A stretch of 42,507 bases of DNA from Escherichia phage glasur, in the sequence record MN850583.1. One strand, given 5' to 3'. The notes below the pieces were generated by a model. It did no database searches. It worked only from the letters and a program-made list of their open reading frames with translations, and was not told where the DNA came from. Of this stretch, positions 1-42,507 are shown piece by piece. Position 1 is the first letter of the stretch. Each line of letters opens with the position of its first letter. A program made the translations under genes and the position numbers.

Positions 1-23
1 TATCACTATAGTCACTTTCATAA
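1..23 (-). promoter_or_regulatory. Inverted exact copy of the 23-nt phage-promoter-like element (TTATGAAAGTGACTATAGTGATA on the minus strand), ending exactly at the window boundary
   Basis: Reverse complement of 1-23 is identical over 23 nt to 20845-20867. It matches the T7 promoter core ACTATAG in the same register. Orientation points out of the window. Confidence 0.45.
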
Positions 24-29
24 TTATCT

Positions 30-160: not shown

Positions 161-190
161 TTGCAAGTCTGATTAGCTTTATGCTGTAAT
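161..190 (+). promoter_or_regulatory. Host sigma70-type early promoter (TTGCAA-N18-TGTAAT with TGn extended -10)
   Basis: -35 TTGCAA at 161-166, -10 TGTAAT at 185-190 preceded by TGc. First of four similarly built promoters, analogous to the T7 A1-A3 arrangement. Confidence 0.5.
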
Positions 191-2202: not shown

Positions 2203-2487
2203 ATGACCACTAAAACTGTTCTGGCCTACGTCACCAAGAAAGGCGAAGAAGTGTACGGCTATGCTGTGTCTATCGACGGCGGCCAAAACTACCTGCATCA
2301 CGTTCGTGAAGAAGGTGAACCGACCGACCATGATGGCATTCTGGAAACGCTGAAAGGCATTCCGCTGCCGCACGAAATCATCTGTATGCTGGCTGGCCAG
2401 ACGGAAGATGACCTGCAACTGCGTCACGGCGATGACCTGACCATTCAGGGTATCGGCAGCTTCGAAGCTGACGTAGACGACGAATAA
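2203..2487 (+). CDS. Small acidic protein (94 aa), member 1 of the tandem acidic array (C-terminal SFEAD motif)
   Basis: Internal ATG of track ORF 2158..2487 chosen because GGAG lies 8 nt upstream. Acidic composition; ends GIGSFEADVDDE. Confidence 0.65.
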   Translation: MTTKTVLAYVTKKGEEVYGYAVSIDGGQNYLHHVREEGEPTDHDGILETLKGIPLPHEIICMLAGQTEDDLQLRHGDDLTIQGIGSFEADVDDE

Positions 2488-2497
2488 GCGTTGTCCT

Positions 2498-2535
2498 GCT
2501 GCATCCTTGCGAGGGTGCAGCGTGGCAATACTGCC
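2498..2535 (+). promoter_or_regulatory. Leader element: hairpin (loop TCCTTGCGAGGG) followed by GGCAATACTGCC (copy 2 of 4)
   Basis: Stem GCTGCA/TGCAGC, then GGCAATACTGCC at 2524-2535. Confidence 0.5.
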
Positions 2536-2560
2536 TTATTCCAATCTGAGGATTAATCCT

Positions 2561-2899
2561 ATGTCTACACTGAAACTGGTACTGATTTCTAACATCGCTG
2601 CTGACGCTTTCGACGCTGATGACGTGGCAGAACTGCAACCGCAGACCTTCGTTGGCTTCCAGCGTGATGGCGAACCGGGCGCACTGGTTGTTGGCCCGAC
2701 TGGTGGTGACGGCGCGGAAGAAGTGAAAGCGCACTTCCACGAGGGCAACCTGCCGCCTGCACTGCCGCTGCAACTGGTTGCCATGTTCGAAGGTCTGGCA
2801 TTCGTCAGCCCGGACAACCTGAAAGAAGCGACCATCGAAGTCATCGCTGAGTACGAGCAGGACGGCGACGACGATGATGACGTGGACTTCTCTGCGTGA
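2561..2899 (+). CDS. Small acidic protein (112 aa), member 2 of the tandem acidic array (poly-Asp C-terminus)
   Basis: ATG at 2561 with TGAGGA upstream, inside track ORF 2507..2899. Ends ...EQDGDDDDDVDFSA. Confidence 0.65.
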   Translation: MSTLKLVLISNIAADAFDADDVAELQPQTFVGFQRDGEPGALVVGPTGGDGAEEVKAHFHEGNLPPALPLQLVAMFEGLAFVSPDNLKEATIEVIAEYEQDGDDDDDVDFSA

Positions 2900-2905
2900 T
2901 ACCTT

Positions 2906-2943
2906 ACTGCCTCGTTGCGACGGGGCAGTGCGGCAATCATGCC
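2906..2943 (+). promoter_or_regulatory. Leader element: hairpin (loop TCGTTGCGACGG) followed by GGCAATCATGCC (copy 3 of 4)
   Basis: Stem ACTGCC/GGCAGT, then GGCAATCATGCC at 2932-2943. Confidence 0.5.
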
Positions 2944-2964
2944 CAACCTAACTGGAGATTTACC

Positions 2965-3246
2965 ATGGCTACAATCAACGTGTATTCCCTGAGCAACGGC
3001 GGTCTGGCATTCATCGCTGGTGATAAGGTAGACGAAGCGCCGTCGCTGGGCGTGACGCCGAAACCGGAAGCCAGCCGTGATGATGTTATCGCGGAAGTCA
3101 AGGGTGCGCTGGAAGACCTCGGCGGTCTGCTGTTCGTCCTGAATGGTGGCAAGCTGTCGGTTGAAAAGCTGGACGCGCTGGAACCTGTCTTTGTTGAGAG
3201 CTTCGAAGCTGACAACATCGACCTCGCTGCTTTCGCTGACGCCTAA
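2965..3246 (+). CDS. Small acidic protein (93 aa), member 3 of the tandem acidic array; clear paralogue of the gene at 3584
   Basis: ATG at 2965 with GGAG upstream. N-terminus MATINVYSL..., central LGGLLFVLNGG and C-terminal SFEAD match the 3584 product. Confidence 0.7.
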   Translation: MATINVYSLSNGGLAFIAGDKVDEAPSLGVTPKPEASRDDVIAEVKGALEDLGGLLFVLNGGKLSVEKLDALEPVFVESFEADNIDLAAFADA

Positions 3247-3284
3247 GCATAACCCGAAACCCACAACCAAAGAGGACAATCAAC

Positions 3285-3515
3285 ATGGCTAAGTTTGAAC
3301 TGGTACGCTTCATTGACCCGAACGATGGCGAAGAAACCTTCGCGCAGTTTGCTGATGACCGCTCGCTGGTCGCCATCTACAACACTGAGCGCACGGCGCG
3401 GCGCTGGTTCAAGGAAGATGAAGACATGGACAGCATCGAAGAAGCGCTGGCTATGCCGGGCTACGCTGAGGCTGTCGAGGCAGCACTGAAAGGCGAAGTC
3501 GTAGCGACTGCGTGA
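3285..3515 (+). CDS. Small acidic protein of unknown function (76 aa)
   Basis: ORF track. AGAGGA ribosome-binding site upstream of the ATG. Confidence 0.7.
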   Translation: MAKFELVRFIDPNDGEETFAQFADDRSLVAIYNTERTARRWFKEDEDMDSIEEALAMPGYAEAVEAALKGEVVATA

Positions 3516-3522
3516 TTTCTGT

Positions 3523-3561
3523 CAGCCCATCCATAGCGGTGGGCTGTAGGGCAATCATGCC
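3523..3561 (+). promoter_or_regulatory. Leader element: hairpin (7-bp stem CAGCCCA/TGGGCTG) followed by GGCAATCATGCC (copy 4 of 4)
   Basis: Hairpin at 3523-3546, then GGCAATCATGCC at 3550-3561. Confidence 0.5.
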
Positions 3562-3583
3562 ACAACAACTGAGGGTATACACC

Positions 3584-3892
3584 ATGGCAACTATCAACGT
3601 TTTCAAAACTATCACTGGCTCACTGGTATTCGTAGTGGGTGAACTGCGTGAAGATGCACCAATCGTTGGCGTGTCTCTGCGTGAAGGGGCAACCGAGGCT
3701 GACGCCATCGCTGAGATTCGTCAGAACATTGAGAACCTCGGCGGCCTGTTCTTCCTGCTGCAAGGTGGCAGCCTGAACCTCGCTAAGTTGCAGGAGCATG
3801 AGCCTGTGCTCGTGACCAGCTTCGAAGCGGAAGACGTAGACGCCAGTGACTTCGAAGCCAGCCGCGCTGACGAAGAAGAAGCAGGCGAGTAA
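3584..3892 (+). CDS. Small acidic protein (102 aa), member 4 of the tandem acidic array; paralogue of the gene at 2965
   Basis: ATG at 3584 with GAGGG upstream. MATINVFKT..., LGGLFFLLQGG, SFEAEDVDASDFEAS and an acidic tail. Confidence 0.7.
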   Translation: MATINVFKTITGSLVFVVGELREDAPIVGVSLREGATEADAIAEIRQNIENLGGLFFLLQGGSLNLAKLQEHEPVLVTSFEAEDVDASDFEASRADEEEAGE

Positions 3893-6824: not shown

Positions 6825-6970
6825 AGTTGATAAGCTGCAACCAAATAAACCTTTGGCTGTGCGTGATACAAAGTGGGAAGCCGAGAGTAAACTCGAAGAC
6901 CTTCAACGTATTATGCGGAATGTTATTCCAGCTTAGCCATCTACTCATGCCAGTTATTATTTAGCTGGCA

Positions 6971-6993
6971 TTATGAAGGTGACTATATTGGAC
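6971..6993 (+). promoter_or_regulatory. Phage-promoter-like element, variant copy (TTATGAAgGTGACTATAtTGgAc)
   Basis: 19/23 identical to the 20845-20867 element and contains GTGACTATA. Placed directly upstream of the first gene of the replication module. Confidence 0.5.
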
Positions 6994-7007
6994 AACCCGG
7001 AGGAAAT

Positions 7008-17437: not shown

Positions 17438-17966
17438 ACGTGGCGACCACTTCTGCCTGTGCATCGAGCGCGACTACAAAGACGCGCTGCTTAATGAGCT
17501 GCGCGATGCTGGTGTAGTGCTGACATACGACGAGCCTTACGATGTGCCGAACGACAGTCGTGATTACTACACCTGCGTATACAATGGCAGTACCAAAGTG
17601 CTGGTGCTTGAACCATTCGAAGTGCAGGCCGTGGAGAAATCATTCATCCCGGTAGAGCCGGAAGCTGGGCCGGGCGGTATGAAGTATGACGGCGGTAAGC
17701 CACGCATGGCCCTGCTGCTCGACGGCTGCCCGAATGCACTGGAGGCTGTGGCCAGCGTGCTGACCTTCGGCGCTCAGAAGTACGCAGCTCACTCATGGCA
17801 GACTGTGCCGGAAGGTGAGGAACGTTACAAGTCAGCGCTGCTCCGGCACCTGACTGCGGTGGGTAAGGGTGAGGAACTCGACCCGGAATCTGGCCTGCAC
17901 CATCTGGCGCACGCTGCTTGCAATGCACTGTTCATTCTCGAACTGGCTTTAAGGAAAACTAAATGA
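17430..17966 (+). CDS. Putative MazG-like nucleotide pyrophosphohydrolase domain protein (178 aa)
   Basis: C-terminal half (KYDGGKPR...VLTFGAQKY...RYKSALLRHL...ESGLHHLAHAACNALFILE) resembles, from memory, the phage dATP/dGTP diphosphohydrolase (MazG-like) domain. N-terminal half is of unknown type. Confidence 0.45.
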   Translation: MSKRGDHFCLCIERDYKDALLNELRDAGVVLTYDEPYDVPNDSRDYYTCVYNGSTKVLVLEPFEVQAVEKSFIPVEPEAGPGGMKYDGGKPRMALLLDGCPNALEAVASVLTFGAQKYAAHSWQTVPEGEERYKSALLRHLTAVGKGEELDPESGLHHLAHAACNALFILELALRKTK

Positions 17967-18147: not shown

Positions 18148-18384
18148 ATGATGAGCAGATACCAACGAGCCATTGAGGACACCGTGGTTGAGAAAGGTGT
18201 GTGCGGGGCGTGCCACGGCTGTGGCACATTCACCAGCATGACCATTCGACACGAGCTTGTCCAAACTGAATGTGAAGCCTGTGGTGGCACGGGCGTGACT
18301 GACCCGGCACTGCAACGCTCAGTGCTGCGGGAACAAGGTATGCGCTGCCAAGTGCAGCCGGGCTATGACCAACCAACGGAGTAA
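18148..18384 (+). CDS. Small zinc-finger protein with two DnaJ-type CxxCxGxG repeats (78 aa)
   Basis: CGACHGCG and CEACGGTG motifs. ATG with TAGGAGAT upstream, inside track ORF 18091..18384. Sits immediately upstream of the RNA polymerase gene. Confidence 0.6.
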   Translation: MMSRYQRAIEDTVVEKGVCGACHGCGTFTSMTIRHELVQTECEACGGTGVTDPALQRSVLREQGMRCQVQPGYDQPTE

Positions 18385-20819
18385 TGATGGACTTACTTGC
18401 TGAGCAGATTCGACTGGAAGAAGAAGCGCGAGCCAGACACCGCGAGGGCTGGCTGGATAATATCAGAGAGGCGTTGGCCGCTGGCCGGGCTGGTTCAGTA
18501 CCATTGCTCCAGCGTATGATGGTTGAGGCGTATCCTCAAGTTGAAGCTGCGATGCAAGAACTCCTGAATGAAACTGCCCGTGGTTATGGTGCGCAGTACC
18601 GGACATACATGCGTGAGCTGGGGCCGCGTGCCTGCGCCTCACTCGCATTGAGCATGGCTGTGTCTGGTGCTGCTGCTGAGCAGGCAGTGCTTAACTTGCT
18701 CAAGGATATGGGCAAGGCTCTGATGGCTGAGGTAGTGTACCTTCGGGCCAAGGCAGCCGGGCCTGTGCAGGCTGCTTACATGGCCAAGGTTAAGACTGAC
18801 GTTAAGCGCTCACGTTCCAAGTCAGCTAACCATGTGTACAACAAGGCGAAAGCGTCGGCGGCTAACGTTGGCGTTGAGCTGGATATCCTGCCGCAGCGTG
18901 CGCTCATCACCATTGGTAAGATGATGATGAAGTGCATTGAGCCTACTGGTCTGCTGGTCACTATGCGCGTTGGCGGCAACCACCGTCAGCGTGGCACTGC
19001 GCACTTCGCACTGCATGAAGATGTGCTGGCAACGATGAAAGATTGGATGGACTTGCCACGGGCAGACGGCCTGTGCTGTCCTCCAATGATTATCCCGCCA
19101 GCGCAGATTGCACGCGATGGTCGTAGCGGTATGTGGCACTCTCCGGGGCAGGCGGCCATGTACCGGGCAATCAGTCGCATGAATCACCGAGGCTATCGTG
19201 CGCTGGGTGTTGACCCACTGCCCATCATAGAGCCGTGTATGATGCTCAGCAGCGTTCCGTACCGAGTTAACCCAATGGTACTGGAGTTCCTGAGAACGAA
19301 CCGTACAGGCGTTATGGGGCTGCCTGTGCCACCGCGTGAGCCTAAGCTCCCGTTCACTATCCCGGCAGGCGTCAGCTTCGCACAGTACATTAGCAAGTTC
19401 CCACCCGAAATGCAGCAGCAGATGGAGTCGGAAGCGCACGAGTACAAGGTGAAGACCCGTCTGTATTACAACGAGCTGCGCAAGTTCACGTCACAGATGC
19501 TGGCGCTGAACGGTGCAGTCAAAGAGGCCGAGCGCTATGCGCCATACGATAGGGTATATCTCCCGACTTACGCCGATACGCGGGGCCGAATTTATTATTC
19601 TTCGACCCTTAACCCTCAGTCCATCGACGCGGTGCGAGCGCTGCTCGAACTTGCTGAACCAGTGGCTCTCGGAAGTGAGGGGCTGTTCTGGCTCAAGGTA
19701 CATGTTGCGAATTGTTTTGGATACGACGCCACAGACTTCGACGACCGGGCAGCGTGGACGGACAAAACACTCCCCAGACTACGTGAGGCGTGCCGTCTTC
19801 CAGAGGCATTTGATTCGTTCTGGTCAGAAGCCGATAGCCCTATCTCAGCGTGGGCTGCTGCTGTTGAACTCATTCGAGCTATCGACTCAGGAAGTCCTGA
19901 GACTTATCCCTGCCGAGTGGTTACGCAGTGGGACGCTACATGTTCAGGACTCCAGCACCTCAGTGCGATGCTACGAGATGAGGTTGGCGGTGCTGCTGTC
20001 AATCTTGTCGATAGCGTGGGAAGAAAAGCAGACATATATCTCAAGACGGCAGCAGCGGCGATGCAGGCTCTTGAAGAAAGTGAAGCGGCTGCGCCGACGA
20101 CAATGGGTTCGTGGCTTGTTTCCATCGGCATTGTTCGGGCTATGGCCAAGAAGCCAGTGATGACCTACGTGTATGGGGCAACCCGGCACGGCATGGTTGA
20201 TTACTACTGCCTGTACCTGCGCGAGAACCGGGTCAAGCTGCCGGAGGGCAAGAGCCTGCTGGAGTGTGCTCAGTTCATTGCTGAGTTTATGTGGGCTGCT
20301 ATCCCTCGCGTCGTGCCGAAAGCTGCTGAGCTTATGGCATGGTTGCAGGCTATCGCAGTAGAGGCTGCGAGCATGGGTGAGTACGTGGAGTTCACTGCGC
20401 CGTCAGGTCTGCGTGTGGTCAATCTGTATCAGGCCAGCAAAGAGATTGCGCTGAACAACATCAACCTCATGGGTATCCACGGCATCAAGCTGCGCGAGTA
20501 TCTGGATAAGCCAGACGGTCGCAAGTGTGCCGCTGCGATTGCTCCGAATTTTGTACACGCTATGGATGCCAGTCACATGATGAAGGTTCTGTGGGAGATG
20601 TGGAATAACGGGGTATACATGGTATCCATCCACGACTCGTTCGGTGTAGCGGCAGCTCATGCCGGGCTACTGCACAAGGTCATACGTGAAAAGTTTGTGC
20701 AGATGTATGAGGAATGCGACCCTATTCAGCAACTTGCGTCAGCATATAACCGTGAAGCTCCAGCTCGCGGTAATCTGGACATCCAGCTTGTGAAGAAATC
20801 AAGCAAGTTCTTCTGCTGA
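18384..20819 (+). CDS. Single-subunit DNA-dependent RNA polymerase (T7 RNAP family)
   Basis: 811 aa. [29 protein letters not shown] matches the T7 RNAP [20 protein letters not shown] region, and VSIHDSFG matches catalytic motif C. Located at the end of the DNA metabolism module. Confidence 0.93.
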   Translation: [811 protein letters not shown]

Positions 20820-20844
20820 TTAAAGCATTGTATTCCTTGCTTAT

Positions 20845-20867
20845 TTATGAAAGTGACTATAGTGATA
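20845..20867 (+). promoter_or_regulatory. Phage RNAP promoter-like element TTATGAAAGTGACTATAGTGATA (reference copy)
   Basis: 16/23 identical to the T7 promoter TAATACGACTCACTATAGGGAGA in the same register, including ACTATAG at -7 to +1. Lies between the RNA polymerase gene and the structural module. Predicted +1 is the G at 20862. Confidence 0.6.
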
Positions 20868-20926
20868 GAATCACGCTACCGGTAGCCCCGTCAGTGGCGG
20901 GGGTGCTGCCACTCAGAGAGGATTGT

Positions 20927-21112
20927 ATGGGTAAAGAATCTCCATTAGATAGAGTAACATTCACTAAAGCTCAGTTAGCTCTACTGGAAAAGCACTTCGG
21001 TACATGGGTACAGGTAGGCAGAACAGTAACACCTGACACTAACCTTCCTCTCATTAACAGAGAAGCTGGTAAGCAGGATGTACTGGACTTCATCCGTGAA
21101 AGAGTGATTTGA
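20927..21112 (+). CDS. Small protein of unknown function (61 aa) with atypical AT-rich codon usage; moron-like
   Basis: ATG at 20927 with GAGAGGA upstream, inside track ORF 20828..21112. Uses AGA Arg and TTA Leu codons and is visibly more AT-rich than neighbouring genes. Flanked by copies of the promoter-like element. Confidence 0.55.
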   Translation: MGKESPLDRVTFTKAQLALLEKHFGTWVQVGRTVTPDTNLPLINREAGKQDVLDFIRERVI

Positions 21113-21134
21113 AATGAAAGTGACTATTATGGGA
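21112..21134 (+). promoter_or_regulatory. Phage-promoter-like element, divergent copy (aaATGAAAGTGACTATtaTGggA) overlapping the start codon of the next gene
   Basis: 14-nt core ATGAAAGTGACTAT is identical to the reference copy, but -1 and +1 differ (T and A instead of A and G), so function is doubtful. Confidence 0.3.
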
Positions 21135-21533
21135 AATACAACGCACACGACTATGCCTCTTGACATTCGGCGTGCGGTGGCCGAGGGCATACAAGCCGAG
21201 CGGCCTTGGTCAGACCTATCTCCCGATGTGATAGTCGAACGCATGTACGAGGCTACTGCCGCTGGTTGCGTTGACGTTTACATTACTGCTGACGACGATG
21301 GCCTCATGGCCGTTGCTCACATCGGCAGGTTATTCGATATTCATGTGGGCGAGATGGTGGTCGTTATGGCCTCATACGTCTGGCCCCAGTACAGAAACCG
21401 TGGAGTGATGCGTGCCATCCTCCGTGTACTCAAAGACGTGGCCCGTTCCGAGGGTGTACGTTGGTGCGGTTACTCCCACATGGTGCGGCCTTACGTTCAG
21501 GAGTACCGCTTCATAGATTTGGAGAAACCGTAA
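21114..21533 (+). CDS. Protein of unknown function (139 aa); weak GNAT-acetyltransferase-like motif
   Basis: ORF track. QYRNRGVMRAIL loosely resembles the acetyl-CoA-binding motif A. Start codon lies inside the promoter-like repeat, so the start is uncertain. Confidence 0.55.
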   Translation: MKVTIMGNTTHTTMPLDIRRAVAEGIQAERPWSDLSPDVIVERMYEATAAGCVDVYITADDDGLMAVAHIGRLFDIHVGEMVVVMASYVWPQYRNRGVMRAILRVLKDVARSEGVRWCGYSHMVRPYVQEYRFIDLEKP

Positions 21534-21796: not shown

Positions 21797-23362
21797 ATGG
21801 CATACGACGCGCAGAACGTCAGCTATGAATCGCTCTGGCAAAAGTACCGGGACAGTAACGTAGTCACCAAGGCTCGTGAGTACAGTCGTTACACGTTGGC
21901 CAAGCTGGTCAGTGAATACGACCGCGCCGAAGTAGACGACATGAACCGCCAGCAGATTACTCGTGACTACCAATCTGTCGGCGCTCTGCTCGTTAACAAC
22001 CTCGTCGCTCGACTGGGTGAGTTCCTGTTCCCGGCATCAGCCCGGTTCGTAAAGCTGAAACTCGATAAGGTGTCTGACCAACAGCGGCAGCAAATGTCCA
22101 AGGTTAATCAGGCACTCATCACTATTGAAAAGGGCATCGTAGACAAAGCCAAAGAGAATGGCGGCTACGCTGACCTGTTAATGACCATTGCCCAACAAGC
22201 AGTCACTGGTAACGCCGCGCTGTACCGCGATATGGAAACTGGAACGTACCGAGTGTACGGGCTGGAATCCTTCGTGGTGCAGCGCGACGGTCGTGGCGTT
22301 GTTACGGACGCCGTGGTCAAAGAACGCATCCAGTGGGATTCCCTCGACAAAGCGTTTCAGGACATGCTGAACGCCAAGGGCTTCCGCTGTGGTGGTAACA
22401 AACGTGTGTGGCTGTACACTCGCGTCCTCCGGGTTCGGAAGGACAGTGGGCTGTATGGCTATGAAGTAACGCAGCAGGTGGGCAACTACCAAGGCTGTGT
22501 CTACACCCCCGGTAAAGATTACTACCCTGAAAAAGTCTGCCCTTGGATTTTCCCAGTGTGGTCTTTGAAGTCTGGCGAGCATTATGGTCGCGGGATTGTC
22601 GAAGACCACGCTGGGGATTTCGCACGTCTGTCGATGCTGTCCGAGCACTCTGCTCTGTACATGCAAGAGGCGCTGCGTGTCCTGTGGATGCTGACTGGTT
22701 CTGGCGGCAACGTCGATGACATTGAATCCGCGCAGACCGGGCAGGTCGTACCTCTCCAGAATGGCACCACGCTGTCTGGTCTTGAGGTCGGGGATTACCA
22801 GAAAGTTCAACAGGCCCGTGACGAAATTAACCAGATTGTGCAGCGACTCGCGCAGGCGTTCATGTACACTGGTGAGTTCCGTGACTCGGAGCGTACCACC
22901 GCAACCGAAGTGCAGCAGGTAGCAACCAGCGCCGAACGTGGGCTGGGCGGCCCGTACTCGATGCAGGCAAAGACCCTCCAGATTCCTCTGGCATATGTCT
23001 TGCTCGCAGAGATTGACGAGTCCTCCGTACCTGACATTGTGGGTGATATCCTGACGCTTCAAGTTGAAGCTGGTCTGGATGCCCTCGGTCGCAGCATCGA
23101 AGCTGAGACGCTGATTCGTGCGCTCTCGGATTCGCAGGCAGCAATGGTTGCTGTCCAAAACATTAACGGCGTTGCCAACGTCATTGACCCGCAGAAGGTC
23201 ATTGAGGTTATCTTCGCTTCCAACGGCGTCGCGCTTGATGACTATCGTAAGTCAGCGCAAGACCTCGCAAATGAAGGTCAGCAAATCGACAGAGCAGCAG
23301 CCGCTGCCGCAGGCGTACAGCCGGGCGCAGTCGATGTAGCGCCGAACGTCGCTCAGATTTAA
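21797..23362 (+). CDS. Head-tail connector (portal) protein, T7 gp8-like
   Basis: 521 aa, at the canonical position before scaffold and capsid genes. GGGAG ribosome-binding site. Confidence 0.8.
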   Translation: MAYDAQNVSYESLWQKYRDSNVVTKAREYSRYTLAKLVSEYDRAEVDDMNRQQITRDYQSVGALLVNNLVARLGEFLFPASARFVKLKLDKVSDQQRQQMSKVNQALITIEKGIVDKAKENGGYADLLMTIAQQAVTGNAALYRDMETGTYRVYGLESFVVQRDGRGVVTDAVVKERIQWDSLDKAFQDMLNAKGFRCGGNKRVWLYTRVLRVRKDSGLYGYEVTQQVGNYQGCVYTPGKDYYPEKVCPWIFPVWSLKSGEHYGRGIVEDHAGDFARLSMLSEHSALYMQEALRVLWMLTGSGGNVDDIESAQTGQVVPLQNGTTLSGLEVGDYQKVQQARDEINQIVQRLAQAFMYTGEFRDSERTTATEVQQVATSAERGLGGPYSMQAKTLQIPLAYVLLAEIDESSVPDIVGDILTLQVEAGLDALGRSIEAETLIRALSDSQAAMVAVQNINGVANVIDPQKVIEVIFASNGVALDDYRKSAQDLANEGQQIDRAAAAAAGVQPGAVDVAPNVAQI

Positions 23363-29412: not shown

Positions 29413-32109
29413 ATGCCAATTATGCGTGACCAGCGTGGCGCTAATCTCAACGCTGCGCAACAGGGCGTACCGAATGTGCAGCAGGCTCAGACTCCGTTTA
29501 GTCTCGCAGGCCGCGATACTCGCATCGACACGTTCCCTACTGAGTCCATCCAGCGCGTACTCAACATGGCCAGCGCACTTGCTGGCCGTGTCACTGAGCG
29601 TGCTAACGAGGAAGAATACCTCAAAGGTGCCAACGCCGCCGCGAGCGGCAAGGCTGTTGAGGATTTGGATTCGAACTGGCTGACAGCTCAGTTCCAGAAA
29701 GCTGGTTATAACGACCAATACAAGCGTATGCAGATGGCTGGTGTGGCCTCTGATATCTCGGCCAACATGACCGAGTACGCGAAAATGTCTCCGCAGGACT
29801 TCCTCAAAGTCATTGACGAGAAGACTACCGGGCTGTTCGACAACACTGATGGCATGACCCTTCGTGGTCGCCAGTCACTGCTGGAGAACCAGCTCACGTT
29901 CAGCAACACCCTGATTCGCACGCAGGCTGCCCAGCACGGTAAGTATCTGGTTGAGCAGCGTGCAGCAATGTACAACTCACAGGGTAACACTCTGGTTACT
30001 CTGGCGGCTCAGGCCAAGGCTTCCGGCGACGGCGGTGCGTATGCAAACGCCACGGCTGCGACCATGGCATGGGCTAAGTCCATTCTGGCCGACGACAAGC
30101 TGCCGCTGGAAACCCGGCGCACGCAGGTCACTTCCATGATGGGCCTGATGCTTTCTCAGGATTTGCGTACTCCGGTCGAGACTGCTGTTAACTCCGGCCT
30201 GTTCAACGACCTGCCTGCCGATGACTTGGCCAAGCTGCAAGGTCAGATTCGTGAATCCAAATCTCGTACCGAGGTGCAGGATAACATGGGTCTGCTGGAG
30301 GCGAAGGGCCAGCTTGATGCTCGTCAGGCTGTGTTTGGAGACGTTACGCCGGGCCAGTACGGTCAGGTGCTCCAGCAGTTGGTGGACAACAAGCTCATCA
30401 CTGCTTCCGGGTACAGCTCGGCTATCGAGTCCTTCTACAAGGATTACGCCAAGCAAGCCAAGGCCAGCCAGCTCGGTCAGGCGTATGCCACCGGGAACCA
30501 GACGTACATGCTCCAGCAGGGCGCAAGTGAGCAGGATGGTGCTGACGCATTCATCAAAGCTCGTATGAAGCAGCCGGGCGCTACGGCCAGCTCTGTGGCA
30601 TTCGACCTGCTGCAAGTTGGCGCACAGACTGGCTTCCCGTCTGCGTACAAATCCGCAGCCAAACTGATTGAGCCATCCCTGTCGAACTTCGGCACCGTGG
30701 ATGAGATGAACCCGGATGCTGCCCGTACCGTCACTGGTCTGATTGACCGTGTGACTGTGGCAGAAAATCAGGGTGACAAGACCGCGTGGACTAAGCTCCT
30801 GTCTGGTCTGTCAGAGGAAAACCAAGAGAAGATGGTGTACATGCGCGAGCAGATTAAAGCTGGCCGCACCATCGACCAAGCTGGTCAGGGTTACATCAAG
30901 CAGCAGCAGGACTATGCTGGCTTAACTCCTGCTCAGAAGTCCCAAATCTTAACACAGCGTCAATCTGACGTGAACAGTGTAGTCAACTCACTTGAGTCCC
31001 AAGGCTTCTTATCTCGCACTTGGCAGGGCTTAGCTGGTCTGTTCTCAGACACTCAGCAGAACCTGTTCCAAGCTCGCGTCGCATCTGGTGACATTACTGC
31101 TGCGCAGGAAATGTCGGAGGTGTCTGCCGCGTACCGCGAGGAACTGCAAGCTGTTGTCCTCAAGAACCCGAACATCACGAAAGACGGTATGGAAGCGCTC
31201 GCGTCTGCGAAGCTGGCCAACCGCGTGCTGCGCGTCGGGGAGACTACGTTCAGTCCCGGCTCTGTGCTTATCGCTCCGAGAAACCAAACTGTTCAGTCTA
31301 TGCTTGGCTTGCCTGCTGACGTGGCACCCGACCGTATCGGTCGCGCCATCGCCTCACTTGACCAGAGCAAGGCACCAGAAGGTTTCGAATCGTCCTACTC
31401 GTTTATGCCCGATGGCTCACTGAACGTTCAGTTCTTCAACAAGACGGGTGACGTTTCCCCGAACAGCTACCGGATTACGCCGCAGGCTATTCAGGAACGT
31501 ATCCGTGAAGACGACCGTGCAGCCGCCACCGCAAATAACGAAGTCTATGGCGATGGGAAACTCTTTGTCGATAAGTCCAGCAACATCGGGATTCGCGTCA
31601 ACGGCGTGAATACTGCTGGGGTTGATGAGCAGCGTATGCTCTACGCCCGTGGCAAGCTGATTGACTTCGAAGGTATCCGCAACACCACCTACCGCGACTC
31701 CACTGGTGTCAGCACCAACGGCATCGGTATCTCTGACCGCAGCCCGTACTTTGCGGAAGGTCAGGCATCCGGTATGCGCGGCGGTACTGAGTGGTCGCCT
31801 CGAACCATTCATGACACGTTCGTTAACCACACCAACATGGTGGCCCGGCAGATGCCCGGTACTGCTGCTGCGCTGGGCTGGAGTCGTGACAACGACGCTC
31901 AGTTCCAGTTCATGATGCAGATGGGCTATCAGGCAGGTTCAAGCTGGTATCGTGCCGAGGGTGCGTACAGCAAGCTGGCTGATGCTATCCGTGTTGGCGA
32001 CCGTGACAAGGCTGTTCAGGCTCTGGCTGCGACTCCGGCTTACAAGCTATCGCAGGATGAGCGCAAGCAGTATTACGTCCAAACTCTACTCGCAGGTATG
32101 CAGGAATGA
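29413..32109 (+). CDS. Internal virion (core) protein, T7 gp15-like
   Basis: 898 aa, position and size. Confidence 0.7.
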   Translation: MPIMRDQRGANLNAAQQGVPNVQQAQTPFSLAGRDTRIDTFPTESIQRVLNMASALAGRVTERANEEEYLKGANAAASGKAVEDLDSNWLTAQFQKAGYNDQYKRMQMAGVASDISANMTEYAKMSPQDFLKVIDEKTTGLFDNTDGMTLRGRQSLLENQLTFSNTLIRTQAAQHGKYLVEQRAAMYNSQGNTLVTLAAQAKASGDGGAYANATAATMAWAKSILADDKLPLETRRTQVTSMMGLMLSQDLRTPVETAVNSGLFNDLPADDLAKLQGQIRESKSRTEVQDNMGLLEAKGQLDARQAVFGDVTPGQYGQVLQQLVDNKLITASGYSSAIESFYKDYAKQAKASQLGQAYATGNQTYMLQQGASEQDGADAFIKARMKQPGATASSVAFDLLQVGAQTGFPSAYKSAAKLIEPSLSNFGTVDEMNPDAARTVTGLIDRVTVAENQGDKTAWTKLLSGLSEENQEKMVYMREQIKAGRTIDQAGQGYIKQQQDYAGLTPAQKSQILTQRQSDVNSVVNSLESQGFLSRTWQGLAGLFSDTQQNLFQARVASGDITAAQEMSEVSAAYREELQAVVLKNPNITKDGMEALASAKLANRVLRVGETTFSPGSVLIAPRNQTVQSMLGLPADVAPDRIGRAIASLDQSKAPEGFESSYSFMPDGSLNVQFFNKTGDVSPNSYRITPQAIQERIREDDRAAATANNEVYGDGKLFVDKSSNIGIRVNGVNTAGVDEQRMLYARGKLIDFEGIRNTTYRDSTGVSTNGIGISDRSPYFAEGQASGMRGGTEWSPRTIHDTFVNHTNMVARQMPGTAAALGWSRDNDAQFQFMMQMGYQAGSSWYRAEGAYSKLADAIRVGDRDKAVQALAATPAYKLSQDERKQYYVQTLLAGMQE

Positions 32110-37594: not shown

Positions 37595-37900
37595 ATGGCA
37601 TCCGTGAACAAGCAGCTCGATGGGCTGCACCGGATGCTGGTGGAGTATCTGTCCGACCGCTTGGCCGACGCCCGTAGAAAAGATGAGAACGGTAATATCA
37701 TCGAACCTATGGCGGCGGCTGAGCTGTCCGTGCTTCGCCAGTTCCTGAAAGACAACGGCATTCAGGCTGATAAAGACCACGCTGACGACCTGCTCGCGCT
37801 GCAAGAACAGCTCAACAACGAGAAGACCGAGGCTGGCCGCAAGGATATCATGACTGCTGCCATCAACTCAATCGCAGAAGATAGCGGGATGATGCACTAA
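37595..37900 (+). CDS. Terminase small subunit (T7 gp18-like)
   Basis: 101 aa helical protein immediately upstream of the large terminase, overlapping it by TAATG. Confidence 0.55.
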   Translation: MASVNKQLDGLHRMLVEYLSDRLADARRKDENGNIIEPMAAAELSVLRQFLKDNGIQADKDHADDLLALQEQLNNEKTEAGRKDIMTAAINSIAEDSGMMH

Positions 37901-39660
37901 TGGATTTACAACGCCGCATGGTGATGGCAGGAATCGTTCGCGCTCACTACGAGAACAACTTCCCGCTGTTCCTGCACGACTACTTCGCATGGCTGGGCTT
38001 TGACCTCACTGAAATGCAGCTCGACATTGGCCGCTACATGGCCGACCGGACGCTCAAGAACAAGTGCGTCATGGCGCAGCGCGGTGAGGCTAAGTCCACC
38101 ATCGGCATTGCTCGCGCTCTGTACGAATTTGTGCAGATGCCGAACGCTACTGTCCTGCTCGTATCCGGTTCCGACGACTATGCTGGTACGCTGTCGCACG
38201 CTATCGTGTCGGCTATCATGCAATGGGACAGGTTGGAATGGTTACGCCCGGAGACTCGCGCTGGCGCACGTACATCGTACACCGATGGCTTCGACGTGCA
38301 TCACGCATTCCGTATCCCTGATAAACAGCCCTCTGTAAAAGCGGTCGGTATCTTCGGCCAGTTGCAGGGGAACCACGTATCGCTGTTGATTGCCGATGAC
38401 GTGGAGACTACCAGTAACGGTAGCTCTCCTGCCAACCGCGCCCGTATCAATACCCTGACCAAAGAGTTCGCGGCTATCGCCAATGACGGTGCAGAGATTC
38501 TGTACCTCGGTACACCGCAGACTCAAGACTCCATCTATAACACGCTCCCGCAGCGTGGCTTTGATGTTCGCATCTGGCCCGGTCGTTTCCCAACGGTTGA
38601 GGAAGAAGAACGCTACGGAGGCTGTCTGGCCCCGTGGATTAAGCAGAAGATGGAGGGCCACCCGGAACTTCGCACAGGTTATGGTATCCTTGGGAACCGT
38701 GGTGCGCAGACCGACCCGCAACGCTACTCCGAAGAAAAGCAGTTGCAGAACGAACGAGACTACCAGCAGGCAGGCTTCCAGTTGCAGTTCATGCTGGACA
38801 CTTCTCTGTCGGATGCTCTCAAACAGACCTTGCATCTCAAGGACTTAATCTTCTTCCACGGCTCGCCTATCTCCGCGCCGGAAGTCTTGCATTGGTCGAA
38901 TCACCCACGGCACGCCGCCGAGCTGCCACTGGATTTCCCACTCGCTCGTGCGCAGCTATTCTTGGCTGCTGATTTCTCGGACACTTATGTACCATTCGAA
39001 AATGCCTCGGCGTTTCTTGACCCTGCTGGTGGTGGGTCGGATGAATCAGTTATCATCGTCACCGCTTCTATCGGCCCGTTTATCCACGTCCTTGGTATGC
39101 ACGTCTACCACGGCGGCCAGACGGAGGAAAACATCCAGACGGCGGTGTCGTGGCTAGGTGAGCTGGGCTGCAAACGTCTCGTCATTGAGGACAACATGGG
39201 CCACGGCACCGTGACCAACATGTACCGAGGTGAGATTAAGCGGCAGAAGCTGACCATGGGCTGCGAGGGTGTGTACTCGTCCGGCCAGAAAGAGGTGCGT
39301 ATCATCAACCGCCTCGGCCCAATCATGCAGCGCCACCGTGTGGTTGTCCACTGGAGCGTTGTTGAAGAAGACCTGCGGTTATGCCGGGGTATGGCCAACG
39401 GTGGTCGTGAGTACAGCCTGTTCTGGCAGCTCCAGAACCTGACTCAAGACCGTCAATCCATCCCGCATGATGACCGAATTGAAACCTTAGCCGCTGCCGT
39501 GTACCTCCACGCCGAGGTGTTGCAGCAAGACGAAAACGAAGAAGCGGAGCGCCGTGCAGTCGCTGTGGCCAAAGAGTTCATCGCCAACCCTATGGGGTAT
39601 GATGACCCGAAATGGCGCAGCCACAAGCCTGTACGCGGTACGCGACGGAGAATTAGATAA
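37900..39660 (+). CDS. Terminase large subunit (T7 gp19-like)
   Basis: 586 aa, the same length I recall for T7 gp19. Walker-B-like LLIADDVETT; canonical position. Confidence 0.85.
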   Translation: MDLQRRMVMAGIVRAHYENNFPLFLHDYFAWLGFDLTEMQLDIGRYMADRTLKNKCVMAQRGEAKSTIGIARALYEFVQMPNATVLLVSGSDDYAGTLSHAIVSAIMQWDRLEWLRPETRAGARTSYTDGFDVHHAFRIPDKQPSVKAVGIFGQLQGNHVSLLIADDVETTSNGSSPANRARINTLTKEFAAIANDGAEILYLGTPQTQDSIYNTLPQRGFDVRIWPGRFPTVEEEERYGGCLAPWIKQKMEGHPELRTGYGILGNRGAQTDPQRYSEEKQLQNERDYQQAGFQLQFMLDTSLSDALKQTLHLKDLIFFHGSPISAPEVLHWSNHPRHAAELPLDFPLARAQLFLAADFSDTYVPFENASAFLDPAGGGSDESVIIVTASIGPFIHVLGMHVYHGGQTEENIQTAVSWLGELGCKRLVIEDNMGHGTVTNMYRGEIKRQKLTMGCEGVYSSGQKEVRIINRLGPIMQRHRVVVHWSVVEEDLRLCRGMANGGREYSLFWQLQNLTQDRQSIPHDDRIETLAAAVYLHAEVLQQDENEEAERRAVAVAKEFIANPMGYDDPKWRSHKPVRGTRRRIR

Positions 39661-41028: not shown

Positions 41029-41380
41029 CATCCACTCGCGTATGGGCGCTGTGGAGGCTCGTATGCAATCCGTAGAAACTCGCCTCGACAAACACGAGAT
41101 TCAAATTGCCAACCTTGAGAAAGGTGACGCTGCTATGCTGGCCAAGCTATCGGAGAACGACTCCCGGTGGCTGGAGATTCAGCAGCAGCTCCGTGTCGTC
41201 GAGCAAATTCAGGACATTCAAAAGACTATGAGCCACATTGGTAAGCTGTTTACTTACGCGGCTCACGCCGTCAAGTGGTGTCTCCTGACCGCTTCACTCG
41301 TTAGCGGTATCTATCTTGCGGTCAAGGCTGGCGACCTCACGGCGCTCCAGTCCTTTATCACAACGATTATGGGGATGTAA
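40997..41380 (+). CDS. Holin-like or lysis-regulator membrane protein (127 aa; coiled coil plus C-terminal transmembrane helix)
   Basis: ORF track. AAGAAGG ribosome-binding site; hydrophobic WCLLTASLVSGIYLAVKAG near the C-terminus. Assignment mainly from position immediately upstream of the endolysin. Confidence 0.35.
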   Translation: MTEAKKEPAPNIHSRMGAVEARMQSVETRLDKHEIQIANLEKGDAAMLAKLSENDSRWLEIQQQLRVVEQIQDIQKTMSHIGKLFTYAAHAVKWCLLTASLVSGIYLAVKAGDLTALQSFITTIMGM

Positions 41381-41916
41381 TGACTAACTTTGAAATCTGT
41401 ATGAAGTTCACCGGGCTGGCCGAGGGTGGGTACACCAAGCTGCCCGGTGACACTGGAGGGGAAACCAACCATGGAATTAGTGACGCTCGTGATGGGAAGC
41501 TGGATGGCAGAGCTTGTGGTGTCCCTACTGGGCTTGGCGGCACTGTGTGCGTGCCTATTAAACAGCTCACCAAAGAGCAAGCCGAAGCAATCTATCGCCG
41601 GGACTACTACAGCCCCATCAGAGGTGACGAGCTTCACCCTGCGATTGCATGTGCCGTGTTTGACTACGGCGTCAACTCCGGCGTCTCCCGTGCTGCTAAG
41701 GCTCTACAGCGGGTATGCGGGGTTGCACAAGACGGGGTTATCGGCCCTGCTACCGTGGCAGCAGCCAAACGTCTGGAACCTCACTCCGCAGCAGCATCCA
41801 TCTGTGACCTTCGTATTGCGTTCCTAGAGGCTTCTACGGCCACGACAGTGGTTCGCTATAGGGATGCCTTGGTTGCTCGTGCAAAACGCTGTAGCGCTTA
41901 CTGTGCGACGCTGTAG
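41380..41916 (+). CDS. Endolysin: GH108-type N-acetylmuramidase with C-terminal peptidoglycan-binding domain
   Basis: N-terminal signature FTGLAEGGYTKLPGDTGGETNHGI (the EGGY...D.GG.T.HGI family motif) and C-terminal AKALQRVCGVAQDGVIGPATVAAAKRL typical of peptidoglycan-binding repeats. No signal anchor. Confidence 0.8.
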   Translation: MTNFEICMKFTGLAEGGYTKLPGDTGGETNHGISDARDGKLDGRACGVPTGLGGTVCVPIKQLTKEQAEAIYRRDYYSPIRGDELHPAIACAVFDYGVNSGVSRAAKALQRVCGVAQDGVIGPATVAAAKRLEPHSAAASICDLRIAFLEASTATTVVRYRDALVARAKRCSAYCATL

Positions 41917-41999
41917 GGGTATCCGAAAGCTGACACAATGAACAGGCCGTGGGTGCAATACCCCGGCTTGAAAATTGAACGTTTATGCGTGGGCCTCCC

Positions 42000-42507
42000 T
42001 CGACCCAAATGACCGCGCGTACCCCCATGACGTGTGCGCGGATTAGCCTCGCGACGTGCGCGATATTGCTCGCGTGCGCTGCGCGGCGCGTCAAGAGGAT
42101 TGCCTGCGTGCGGTATAGCTCGTGCGTGTCGCGTTTCATCGTCTGCCGTGTGGCGTGCTGTGCGCTGTCCTGCTGGCTGTGCTGTGCGGTGCTGTCCTAT
42201 GGGGACGCTCTGCGCTGGCTGTGCTGTGCTGTGTGCTGCGCTCGGTCGTGCGGGTATCTGTCTCTTTTCGTCGTGCGCCGTGGTGCTGTGTGGTGGTGTG
42301 GTGTAGCGGTGGTGCTGCCGTGGTGCTGTCCTGTCTGCTGGTCTACTGTCTGCGCCGCCAGCTCTGCGCGTCATGCTCTGCTACTGTGTCACCTGTCCTA
42401 CTGCGTTCACTGGCTGCCGCCTGTCATCCTGTCGGATTCCATCCGTTGCCGTTCCGCGCTCGCTTGTTTCGGCTGCGCCGCGCTCGCTCTGCGTATCTAG
42501 CGATACA
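42000..42507. repeat. GC-rich, strongly strand-skewed (A-depleted) right terminal region with short degenerate GTGCTGT/GCTGTCC repeats
   Basis: About 6 A residues in roughly 230 nt (42130-42360) on the + strand. Recurring GGCTGTGCTGTGC and GTGCTGTCC units. Only Cys/Arg-rich ORFs with no ribosome-binding site. Confidence 0.6.
42255..42270 (+). promoter_or_regulatory. Candidate T7-RNAP class II pause/termination (concatemer-junction-like) motif TATCTGTCTCTTTTCG
   Basis: Resembles the T7 class II signal ATCTGTT followed by a U-rich tract, with one mismatch. In T7 this signal lies in the terminal repeat. Confidence 0.35.

Follow-up and report, generated by a model that had tools for sequence, protein, structure and literature searches.

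Introduction

Two described systems are among those closest to the locus considered here. In phage T7, the heptamer ATCTGTT is a class II pause and termination signal of the phage RNA polymerase, which acts via the non-template strand and needs a downstream U-run for termination (PMC11617373). Any base change was reported to abolish this signal for T7 RNA polymerase (10.1101/2021.01.11.426313), and a model that connects the pausing polymerase with the terminase has been described for T7 (PMC3276506). In the Pseudomonas phage LUZ19 (Phikmvvirus), ONT-cappable-seq revealed four phage promoters, two of them directly behind the RNA polymerase gene, a third within the structural region and a fourth, P001, antisense in the early region (PMC10914365). 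The antisense transcripts reach the other genome end, and the authors suggested that P001 stops transcription running into the early genes on the circularised genome; P001-type arrangements were found in 15 other Phikmvvirus species (PMC10914365). Similarly, four promoters per genome were reported for LUZ19 and KP34 (PMC11880802). In this study we compared these systems with the right end of the genome record of Escherichia phage glasur (MN850583), a stretch of 42,507 nt that is referred to as the window in the following. An initial annotation of its last roughly 590 nt had described a non-coding, A-depleted region of degenerate repeats with a T7-like pause motif, and had interpreted it as a terminal-repeat and packaging region.

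The comparison with related phages places the region in an ordinary class, namely the terminal repeat and junction of a T7-relative phage, and the initial annotation was right in outline. The probable explanation of the locus as a whole is a left-terminal region with a collapsed direct terminal repeat (DTR), a boundary motif, an A-poor spacer and a leftward phage promoter. We consider the anatomical part of this reading very likely, while the functional part is put forward tentatively. Sequence comparison shows, from left to right, a hairpin and an end box, then the repeat with its boundary motif, the A-poor spacer that leads up to the leftward promoter, and finally AT-rich repeats and the early promoters. 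All positions are window coordinates of the glasur record with the plus strand as presented, and minus-strand sites are written from high to low.

Results

Evidence for a collapsed terminal repeat

The final 608 nt of the window match 21 phage records, most of which belong to Bonnellvirus, with 84-96% identity for the full-length matches. Judged by these matches, the window is a Bonnellvirus genome (Autographiviridae, phiKMV-like part). Because the end of the window joins its start without a break in five relatives (forsur, usur, altidsur, Kc261 and RZ4), and because neither a second terminal-repeat copy nor a long direct repeat was found within the window, the record is judged to be linearised at an arbitrary point and to hold any DTR as one collapsed copy. 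Collapsed DTRs and arbitrary break points are common in short-read assemblies of such phages (PMC10438801). The non-coding stretch extends from the last late gene, an endolysin gene ending at 41916, across the break to the early promoters, which begin at 161, with the first gene at 987. This is the place expected of a DTR region. The following features were assigned to the repeat and its left end.

42000..42243, no strand assigned: predicted DTR, one collapsed copy, based on homology to J8-65; its right boundary is uncertain and possibly extends to about 42258

41963..42006, plus strand: conserved box over the inferred left end, CCCGGCTTGAAAATTGA-N-TGCGTGGGCCTCCC/TCGACCC (the slash marks the end), near-invariant in 13 Bonnellviruses

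42203..42218, plus strand: invariant island GGACGCTCTGCGCTGG inside the repeat, with GGACGC and CTGCGCTGG identical in 13 of 13 Bonnellvirus sequences and flanks that vary with indels

In the record of J8-65 (KM247287), the type species of Bonnellvirus, the first and the last 259 bp are exact copies of each other. The first base of this DTR (TCGACCC...) aligns to position 42000 and the last base to about 42243, which points to a DTR of about 244-259 bp with its left end near 42000. The J8-65 repeat is homologous to the window sequence, occupies the same place after the endolysin gene and has the same flanking box and boundary motif. However, the two are only about 70-75% identical, the J8-65 repeat measures 259 bp as opposed to an inferred 244 bp, its boundary motif is the variant TATCTATCTTTTTT, and the window has a different break point and only a single copy. 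In the LIMEzero record, which is also collapsed, no terminal repeat was found. For Kc261 (MW250275) the paper gives 42,203 bp and the record 42,432 bp, and the gap of 229 bp is close to the size of a terminal repeat.

The left-end box of about 45 nt, CCCGGCTTGAAAATTGA...GGGCCTCCC/TCGACCC, spans position 42000. It is kept in LIMEzero and in the metagenomic relatives L018 and L019, despite extra genes upstream in L019, and is a candidate for the site at which the terminase recognises and cuts the left end. The box was also considered as a repeated phage promoter, which was rejected as it occurs in a single copy in the window. Moreover, CCCCCATG is located at 42022-42029, which is 23-30 nt from 42000. 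All eight Autographiviridae with defined ends that were compared (T7, T3, SP6, KP34, phiKMV, LKA1, LIMElight and J8-65) have a C-run (C4-8) with AT or GT directly behind it at a distance of 23-34 nt from the left end. Since the conserved box spans 42000 and the C-run has the same spacing as in these eight phages, position 42000 is the likely left end. The C-run box is often a perfect palindrome, for instance CCCCCATAGGGGG, and may help to locate ends in collapsed assemblies.

The initial annotation had supposed a repeat that was possibly collapsed and a genome possibly opened at an arbitrary point. Both suppositions agree with the contiguous junction in five relatives, the single repeat copy, the homology to the J8-65 DTR and the C-run box. 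The comparison with the termini of related phages which it had proposed likewise supports the assignment, as the exact 259-bp DTR of J8-65 maps to about 42000-42243 and the spacing of the C-run box matches the eight phages with defined ends.

A conserved motif at the right edge of the predicted repeat

The sequence GGGTATCTGTCTCTTTT occupies 42252-42268, so that TATCTGTCTCTTTTCG indeed lies at 42255-42270 as had been annotated, and it is single-copy in the genome.

42252..42270, plus strand: DTR-boundary motif GGGTATCTGTCTCTTTTCG, in which an ATCTGT core as in T7 and SP6 goes together with the LKA1-type TGYCTCTTTT

Written as GG(G/C)TATCT(G/A)TCT(C/T)TTTT, this motif is the best conserved island of the block, with 3 variable positions in 13 genomes and indel-rich flanks. 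It starts 11 nt past the end of the J8-65-homologous DTR, a boundary that is inferred here, and this corresponds to the position of class II signals in relatives. A TTTT run follows at 42265-42268, 2 nt past the heptamer, and is the only T4 run in the 508-nt block. The heptamer itself deviates from ATCTGTT by one base in the window (ATCTGTC) and by two in the J8-65 clade (ATCTATC), and it reads ACTCTAC in LIMEzero. The right boundaries of the repeats in relatives are as follows, where the slash marks the end of the repeat.

T7, repeat of 160 bp: ...GTGTCCCT / ATCTGTT

T3, repeat of 231 bp: ...GTGTCCCT / ATCTGTT

SP6, repeat of 174 bp: ...GGGCTA / TCTGTT

LKA1, repeat of 298 bp: repeat / TGCCTCTTTTG

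LIMElight, repeat of 277 bp: repeat / TGCCTTTTGTCG

KP34, repeat of 216 bp: repeat / TGCCTTGCTTATTTTG

Thus, ATCTGTT abuts the end of the DTR in T7 and T3 and straddles it in SP6, and LKA1, LIMElight and KP34 have a TGCCT..TTTT motif whose first base immediately follows the repeat. In LKA1, TGCCTCTTTTGC closely matches TGTCTCTTTTCG of the window, and the motifs of LKA1, LIMElight and KP34 are also located at or next to the right edge of the repeat. In these three phages the repeat ends immediately before the motif, whereas the annotated repeat of J8-65 ends about 11-17 nt earlier. The motif in the window looks like a composite of the T7/SP6-type and the LKA1-type boundary motifs. Judged by its heptamer it fails strict class II membership, yet it occupies the place where the class II members sit.

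The junctions of T7, T3 and SP6 resemble the window in their layout, in which late genes are followed by the repeat, an ATCTGT pyrimidine motif at its right edge, non-coding repeats and early host-type promoters. The classes of polymerase and terminase are shared as well, and so is the C-run box at about 25 nt from the left end. Unlike in these phages, the heptamer of the window is ATCTGTC (ATCTATC in the clade of J8-65), is set off from the annotated boundary by about 11 nt and has a T-run behind it. Furthermore, A accounts for 19% of the T7 repeat and 26% of the T3 repeat compared to 7-11% here. A weight-matrix (PWM) scan showed no rightward phage promoter in the window that would be equivalent to phiOR/phiOL of T7, and the leader promoter described below points leftward. 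The resemblance to the T7 pause signal which had been annotated therefore holds in part: the motif is a conserved island at the DTR edge as in T7, T3 and SP6, but its heptamer is inexact and occurs at chance frequency, and the resemblance is not significant on its own. Besides, the signal had been placed in the terminal repeat of T7, while in T7 it lies just outside the repeat.

An A-poor block with degenerate repeats

The base composition of the region is exceptional within the genome.

42118..42350, plus strand: A-depleted GT-rich core of degenerate GTGCTG(T) units that straddles the right boundary of the DTR, defined by A count and by a k-mer redundancy above that of shuffles

42271..42507, plus strand: A-poor spacer from the boundary motif to the leftward promoter, GT-rich first and CT-rich from about 42350 according to composition profiles

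The lowest 230-nt window (42118-42347) contains 6 A on the plus strand, compared to a genome median of 52 and a lowest value of 34 elsewhere. In a 514-nt scan the minimum was 35 A against a median of 117, with 90 as the next-lowest value. The four longest A-free runs of the genome (60, 53, 50 and 48 nt) are all found inside 42139-42494, and G+C amounts to 61-67% from 42000 onward as opposed to 46-59% per kb elsewhere. The A depletion, GC richness and strand skew that had been noted for the last roughly 590 nt are hence well founded. The same is true for the degenerate GTGCTGT-type repeats: GTGCTGT occurs in 7 copies compared to 3.7 +/- 1.0 in dinucleotide-preserving shuffles (p about 0.016), the 6- to 8-mer redundancy of the block was reached by 0 of 500 shuffles, and its self-identity peaks at lag 5 (TGCTG).

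Among relatives the block is indel-rich, and yet the inserted bases contain only 3.6% A. Its polymorphic columns comprise 31 A alleles compared to 118-126 for each other base. The stretch 42273-42333 differs in length among relatives, and CCAGCTCTGCGCGTCA belongs to the conserved islands of the spacer. T-runs of at least 3 nt are scarce in the block (3 vs 8.5 +/- 2.3 expected). Between 42118 and 42350 there is no 6-bp palindrome, and the 4-bp palindromes are limited to GCGC and CGCG. GTC sites of the T7-primase type are frequent in the block but not above the expectation from dinucleotide composition, and Chi sites are absent from the terminal region. Elsewhere in the genome, seven Chi sites (GCTGGTGG) were counted at 11215, 24254, 25820, 26195, 27039, 37636 and 39025, all on the plus strand, where 2.7 +/- 1.6 are expected for both strands together.

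A leftward promoter-like element beyond the block

At the right edge of the block, on the other side of the break, we identified an element (promoter at 23..7 on the minus strand) which the initial annotation had missed and which gives the skew a more specific context.

1..27, minus strand: leftward phage-RNA-polymerase promoter-like element TTATGAAAGTGACTATA/G (the slash precedes the start), with the promoter at about 23..7 and an inferred start at about 6; it would copy the complement of the A-poor block

20841..20868, plus strand: rightward phage promoter-like copy directly after the RNA polymerase gene (PWM)

21108-21135, plus strand: rightward phage promoter-like copy at a gene junction, overlapping both the upstream stop codon and the ATG of the downstream gene (open reading frame (ORF) 21114-21533)

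6967-6994, plus strand: rightward phage promoter-like copy after a hairpin (GCCAGTTATTATTTAGCTGGC) and before a ribosome-binding site

The 21-nt element ATGAAAGTGACTATAGTGATA on the minus strand at 21..1 is the exact reverse complement of 20847-20867 (21 of 21 positions), which directly follows the RNA polymerase gene. The PWM scan returned exactly four sites in the genome with scores of 32-38, compared to 15.6 for the next-best site, and the leader and post-polymerase copies scored 38.5 and 38.3. The copy at 6967 probably marks the switch from the host to the phage polymerase. The promoter core ATGAAAGTGACTATA/G presumably resembles the SP6 promoter ATTTAGGTGACACTATA/G. A search for the SP6 promoter core gave no match in the compared loci, which included the first 1.5 kb of SP6.

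The copies within one genome change together. At positions -9 to -7 the motif reads GTGAC in all four copies of the window, GCTAC in all three copies examined in usur, and GTGTC in all three copies examined in altidsur and in contig L016. In J8-65 and Lidtsur the leader and post-polymerase copies read GTAAC, and the second downstream copy of J8-65 reads GTATC; L018 has a different motif that is common to both its copies. The leader element thus shares its motif with the post-polymerase promoters, is placed antisense to every gene within the non-coding early region, is one of four sites and co-varies with the other copies. Since co-evolving multi-copy motifs ahead of gene blocks look like promoters of the phage polymerase, the leader copy looks like a leftward phage promoter with its start at about window position 6 on the minus strand.

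A similar arrangement is known from LUZ19, which likewise has four phage promoters, among them a pair directly behind the RNA polymerase gene and an antisense one in non-coding DNA of the early region. In contrast, the promoter sequences are unrelated (GgtTATGTCACacACAnnGG in LUZ19 vs ATGAAAGTGACTATAG here), the fourth promoter lies in the structural region of LUZ19 but at 6.97 kb here, and the LUZ19 promoters were mapped by experiment while those of the window are predicted from the sequence. T7 and T3 possess A0, a host-polymerase promoter within or next to the repeat. As annotated, A0 resembles the leader promoter in its location near the left end and in firing toward the genome end. To our knowledge, no function of A0 has been reported.

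The skew is bounded by genome end and predicted promoter in related phages

In the window, the A-poor block extends from about 120 to about 480 nt from the inferred end, and the promoter occupies 509-535. Similar boundaries were found in J8-65, with an A-poor block up to about 520 and a promoter core at 535-548. In phiKMV the A-poor block starts at 1 and reaches about 720, and the published LUZ19-type motif (GGTTATGTCACACACAATGG) occurs there as its reverse complement at about 711-730. In LKA1 (NC_009936) the motif AATTGTCGCACTAG occurs four times. Three copies are on the plus strand, at 17850, at 21828 immediately behind the polymerase gene and at 31512, and the fourth is on the minus strand at 473. 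The LKA1 genome is A-poor over 1-480, a block that includes its genome-wide minimum of A (29 A in 450 nt, where the median is 94). KP34 has a strong rightward leader promoter (sequence from PMC6834552) and a weak skew, and T7 and T3 are without skew. The LKA1 record lists CCGCTGCACTCGCAGC at 2757, 3608, 6926 and 15011 as 'putative phage LKA1 specific promoters'; it is AATTGTCGCACTAG instead that matches the distribution mapped in LUZ19, and the promoter annotation of LKA1 may need revising.

As the A-poor block lies between the genome end and the promoter, the predicted antisense RNA up to the inferred end, 514 nt in length, would contain 8% U with only one UU and one UUU. The antisense-promoter layout as such is already known in a related genus, and the window would add another case. 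A depletion that is delimited by the genome end and a leftward promoter, here in three genera, seems to be unreported in the related-phage literature that we covered; no connection of P001 with base composition was found in the LUZ19 study (PMC10914365).

Coding potential and RNA structure

Several database records annotate ORFs in the A-poor block, and a 171-amino-acid Cys-rich ORF at 41985-42500 is listed as hypothetical in forsur. Such long ORFs are expected because an A-free strand cannot hold a stop codon, and open frames arise automatically. Between 2 and 22 indels were counted per relative genome (13 compared), most of which are not multiples of three, and frame-breaking ones occur in every relative. 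Moreover, the annotated ORFs are inconsistent between records, and a Pfam search with three long ORFs returned nothing. The non-coding status assumed in the initial annotation is thus sustained, and a coding gene is excluded for practical purposes. The hypothetical proteins annotated in the A-free terminal region (forsur_28, Kc261 QQM15444, Lidtsur QBZ71559, HHU8 XMR00743 and ROV85 gp21-23) are most likely artefacts of a strand unable to carry stop codons.

The suggestion that the skew might encode a structured RNA did not find support. The block folds no better than shuffles (z = +0.22 on the plus strand and +0.20 on the minus strand), and the sole Rfam match on both strands of 41800-42507 had E = 0.79, far under the gathering score of the family. 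The left part alone (41917-42120) folds better than shuffles (z = -2.58) and includes the stem of a hairpin.

41943..41970, plus strand: hairpin 3' of the endolysin gene, CAGGCCGTGGG-TGCAATA-CCCCGGCTTG, terminator-like without a clean T-run; its stem appears in the fold of 41917-42120

The top of this stem is deleted in the J8-65 clade. A scan for sigma-70 promoters and simple terminators over 41300-42507 gave nothing useful and did not call the hairpin.

Early region and gene context

Several further features surround the terminal region.

41380..41916, plus strand: endolysin gene (GH108), the last late gene ahead of the terminal region (Pfam Glyco_hydro_108, E = 6.8e-22; relatives annotate an endolysin)

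37900-39660: large terminase gene, T7-type

18384-20819: single-subunit RNA polymerase gene (Pfam RNA_pol, E = 7e-84)

987-1379: SAM lyase gene, the first gene in the genome

30..139, plus strand: AT-rich G-poor block with a 30-nt direct repeat at 30-59 and 110-139 (80 nt apart), situated between the leftward promoter and the early promoters, genus-conserved

161..190, plus strand: first host-type early promoter, TTGCAA, 18-nt spacer, TGCTGTAAT, read from the sequence and conserved in relatives

The stretch 1-160 contains 8% G and the longest G-free run of the genome, and its position resembles that of the short-repeat array to the right of the T7 terminal repeat. Four host-type promoter-like sites with TTGCAA or TTGACA as -35 element follow at 161-190, 264-292, 401-429 and 480-509. 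Three of them, including those at 282-292 and 419-429, have the extended -10 element TATGCTGTAAT, and the fourth reads ATGTGATGTAAT (about 498-509). The sites are about 670-1020 bp from the inferred left end, a distance similar to that of A1-A3 in T7. The 16-mer GCTCTTTAACAATCTG is found at 243-258, downstream of the first early promoter. It is identical in L018, T7 (813-828), T3 (781-796), SP6 (926-941) and all compared Bonnellviruses except J8-65, which is one base off. We take this 16-mer to resemble the rrn boxA antitermination element. Further downstream, 2457-3842 contains two families of short repeats with three copies each, CAGCTTCGAAGCTGACG and GGGCAGTGCGGCAATCATGCC, spaced about 400-740 nt apart.

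Discussion

The combination of a leftward promoter, an A-poor block and a single boundary motif suggests a mechanism for the junction. Once made, the phage polymerase would start leftward at about position 6 and copy the A-poor block into an antisense RNA of about 514 nt, which on concatemers would run on through the repeat and enter the adjacent genome unit. With a template almost without A, the hybrid would be almost devoid of weak rU:dA pairs and the RNA would have no U-run, so that leftward polymerases could cross the repeat unhindered. Polymerases that read through from the late genes in the rightward direction would meet the single conserved T-run motif at the edge of the repeat. Together, the leftward crossing and the rightward motif would insulate the early region of the next unit from late transcription, and the junction may be marked for the terminase, as it is by the paused polymerase in T7. 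Polymerase pausing at the junction and antisense transcription from P001 were shown in the relatives T7 and LUZ19, respectively, and transcription, pausing and the reason for the skew are inferred for the window. An earlier idea, in which the block is a general barrier to rightward polymerases by means of many U-runs, was dropped as T-runs are depleted save for the one conserved motif.

A stronger version of this mechanism holds that the A-free block is selected and not a product of drift. Phages of the phiKMV type would keep A out of the template so that the leftward polymerase makes a U-free, unstoppable RNA over the terminal repeat, which would block late read-through and/or leave a stable RNA:DNA hybrid for concatemer processing or repeat duplication. 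We regard this version as speculative.

Several points weigh against our interpretation. The termini and the length of the DTR are derived from J8-65, which is only 70-75% identical here, and the J8-65 paper gives no account of how the ends of that phage were determined. The right boundary of the DTR could shift by about 15 nt under the pattern seen in LKA1 and KP34. ATCTGTY is not enriched in the genome (9 found vs 9.7 expected), the boundary motif departs from a canonical class II signal, and LIMEzero and L018 retain only its TCTCTTTT part. The leftward promoter is a prediction from sequence logic. Furthermore, the favoured model does not account for the change at about 42350, where GT-rich gives way to CT-rich sequence, and the proposed reason for the skew, an rU:dA-free hybrid and insulation, is hypothetical; mutational bias or repeat slippage could contribute to it.

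Of the alternatives, a pure concatemer-junction signal of the T7 type survives best. Here, the rightward polymerase would pause or terminate at TATCTGTCTCTTTT and recruit the terminase to cut at the edge of the repeat, and the A-poor repeats would be incidental. The motif is conserved and is found next to the DTR boundary, where T7, T3 and SP6 have ATCTGTT, a T-run follows 2 nt later as required for class II termination (PMC11617373), a T7-type terminase and RNA polymerase are present, and the T7 model offers a precedent (PMC3276506). However, the heptamer is inexact and differs between clades, whereas any change is reported to abolish the signal for the T7 polymerase (10.1101/2021.01.11.426313), and it occurs at chance frequency. 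The PWM scan gave no rightward phage promoter upstream of the repeat that could take the role of phiOR. Moreover, this alternative offers no reason for the skew to persist for 250 nt beyond the motif and to stop where the leftward promoter lies. While compatible with the favoured explanation, it omits the antisense promoter, and as a full account of the locus we find it possible but doubtful.

The skew could also be a neutral by-product without function, in which an unconstrained spacer is shaped by strand-biased mutation or by GT-rich microsatellite-like expansion and contraction. The block is in fact indel-rich and variable in length, consists of short degenerate repeats and shows neither excess structure nor coding potential. 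Nevertheless, phiKMV and LKA1 show the same skew although their sequences are unrelated, the leftward promoter is its end point in every case, new insertions stay A-poor, and the change from GT-rich to CT-rich while remaining A-poor is not predicted by a single mutational bias. Neutrality as the whole explanation is therefore unlikely, and slippage or mutational bias may contribute.

Somewhat less probable still is a protein-binding array, in which the GTGCTG units and the islands would bind the small terminase subunit or another protein of packaging or replication. The repeats exceed chance and the repeat contains invariant islands; besides, short repeat arrays are visible on the flanks of the terminal repeat in T7 as well. 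On the other hand, the number and spacing of the repeats vary among close relatives, and an array itself does not require A depletion on one strand. Restriction avoidance is a poor candidate. According to this alternative, the DNA that enters first and lacks A on one strand would carry no A/T-containing palindromes or bipartite adenine-methylation sites before the SAM lyase is expressed. The palindrome content of 42118-42350 and the anti-restriction SAM lyase as first gene (987-1379) are in line with this, but T7 and T3 share the entry logic without the skew, the skew tracks promoter orientation instead, and a given site is rarely present in 500 nt anyway. Array binding and restriction avoidance are possible as minor contributors. 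A protein-coding gene or a structured non-coding RNA, for which the long ORF and its annotation in several records could be quoted, can be dismissed almost entirely in view of the indels, the fold scores and the Pfam and Rfam searches given above.

With the favoured explanation, an odd low-complexity tail becomes a readable map of a genome end, a terminal repeat, a boundary signal and an antisense promoter. This map allows the re-orientation of the glasur record and its relatives and the removal of spurious ORFs from at least five database entries. The antisense-promoter layout, which so far has been mapped only in the Pseudomonas phage LUZ19, is extended to the enterobacterial Bonnellviruses and to LKA1. 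The delimitation of the skew by genome end and promoter is worth a modest follow-up. If the A-free block is indeed selected, a step in base composition together with an inverted promoter copy would locate the true ends of collapsed assemblies. For phiKMV-like phages, the link between skew and promoter provides a testable handle on the purpose of the antisense transcript, on the separation of late from early transcription and on concatemer processing.

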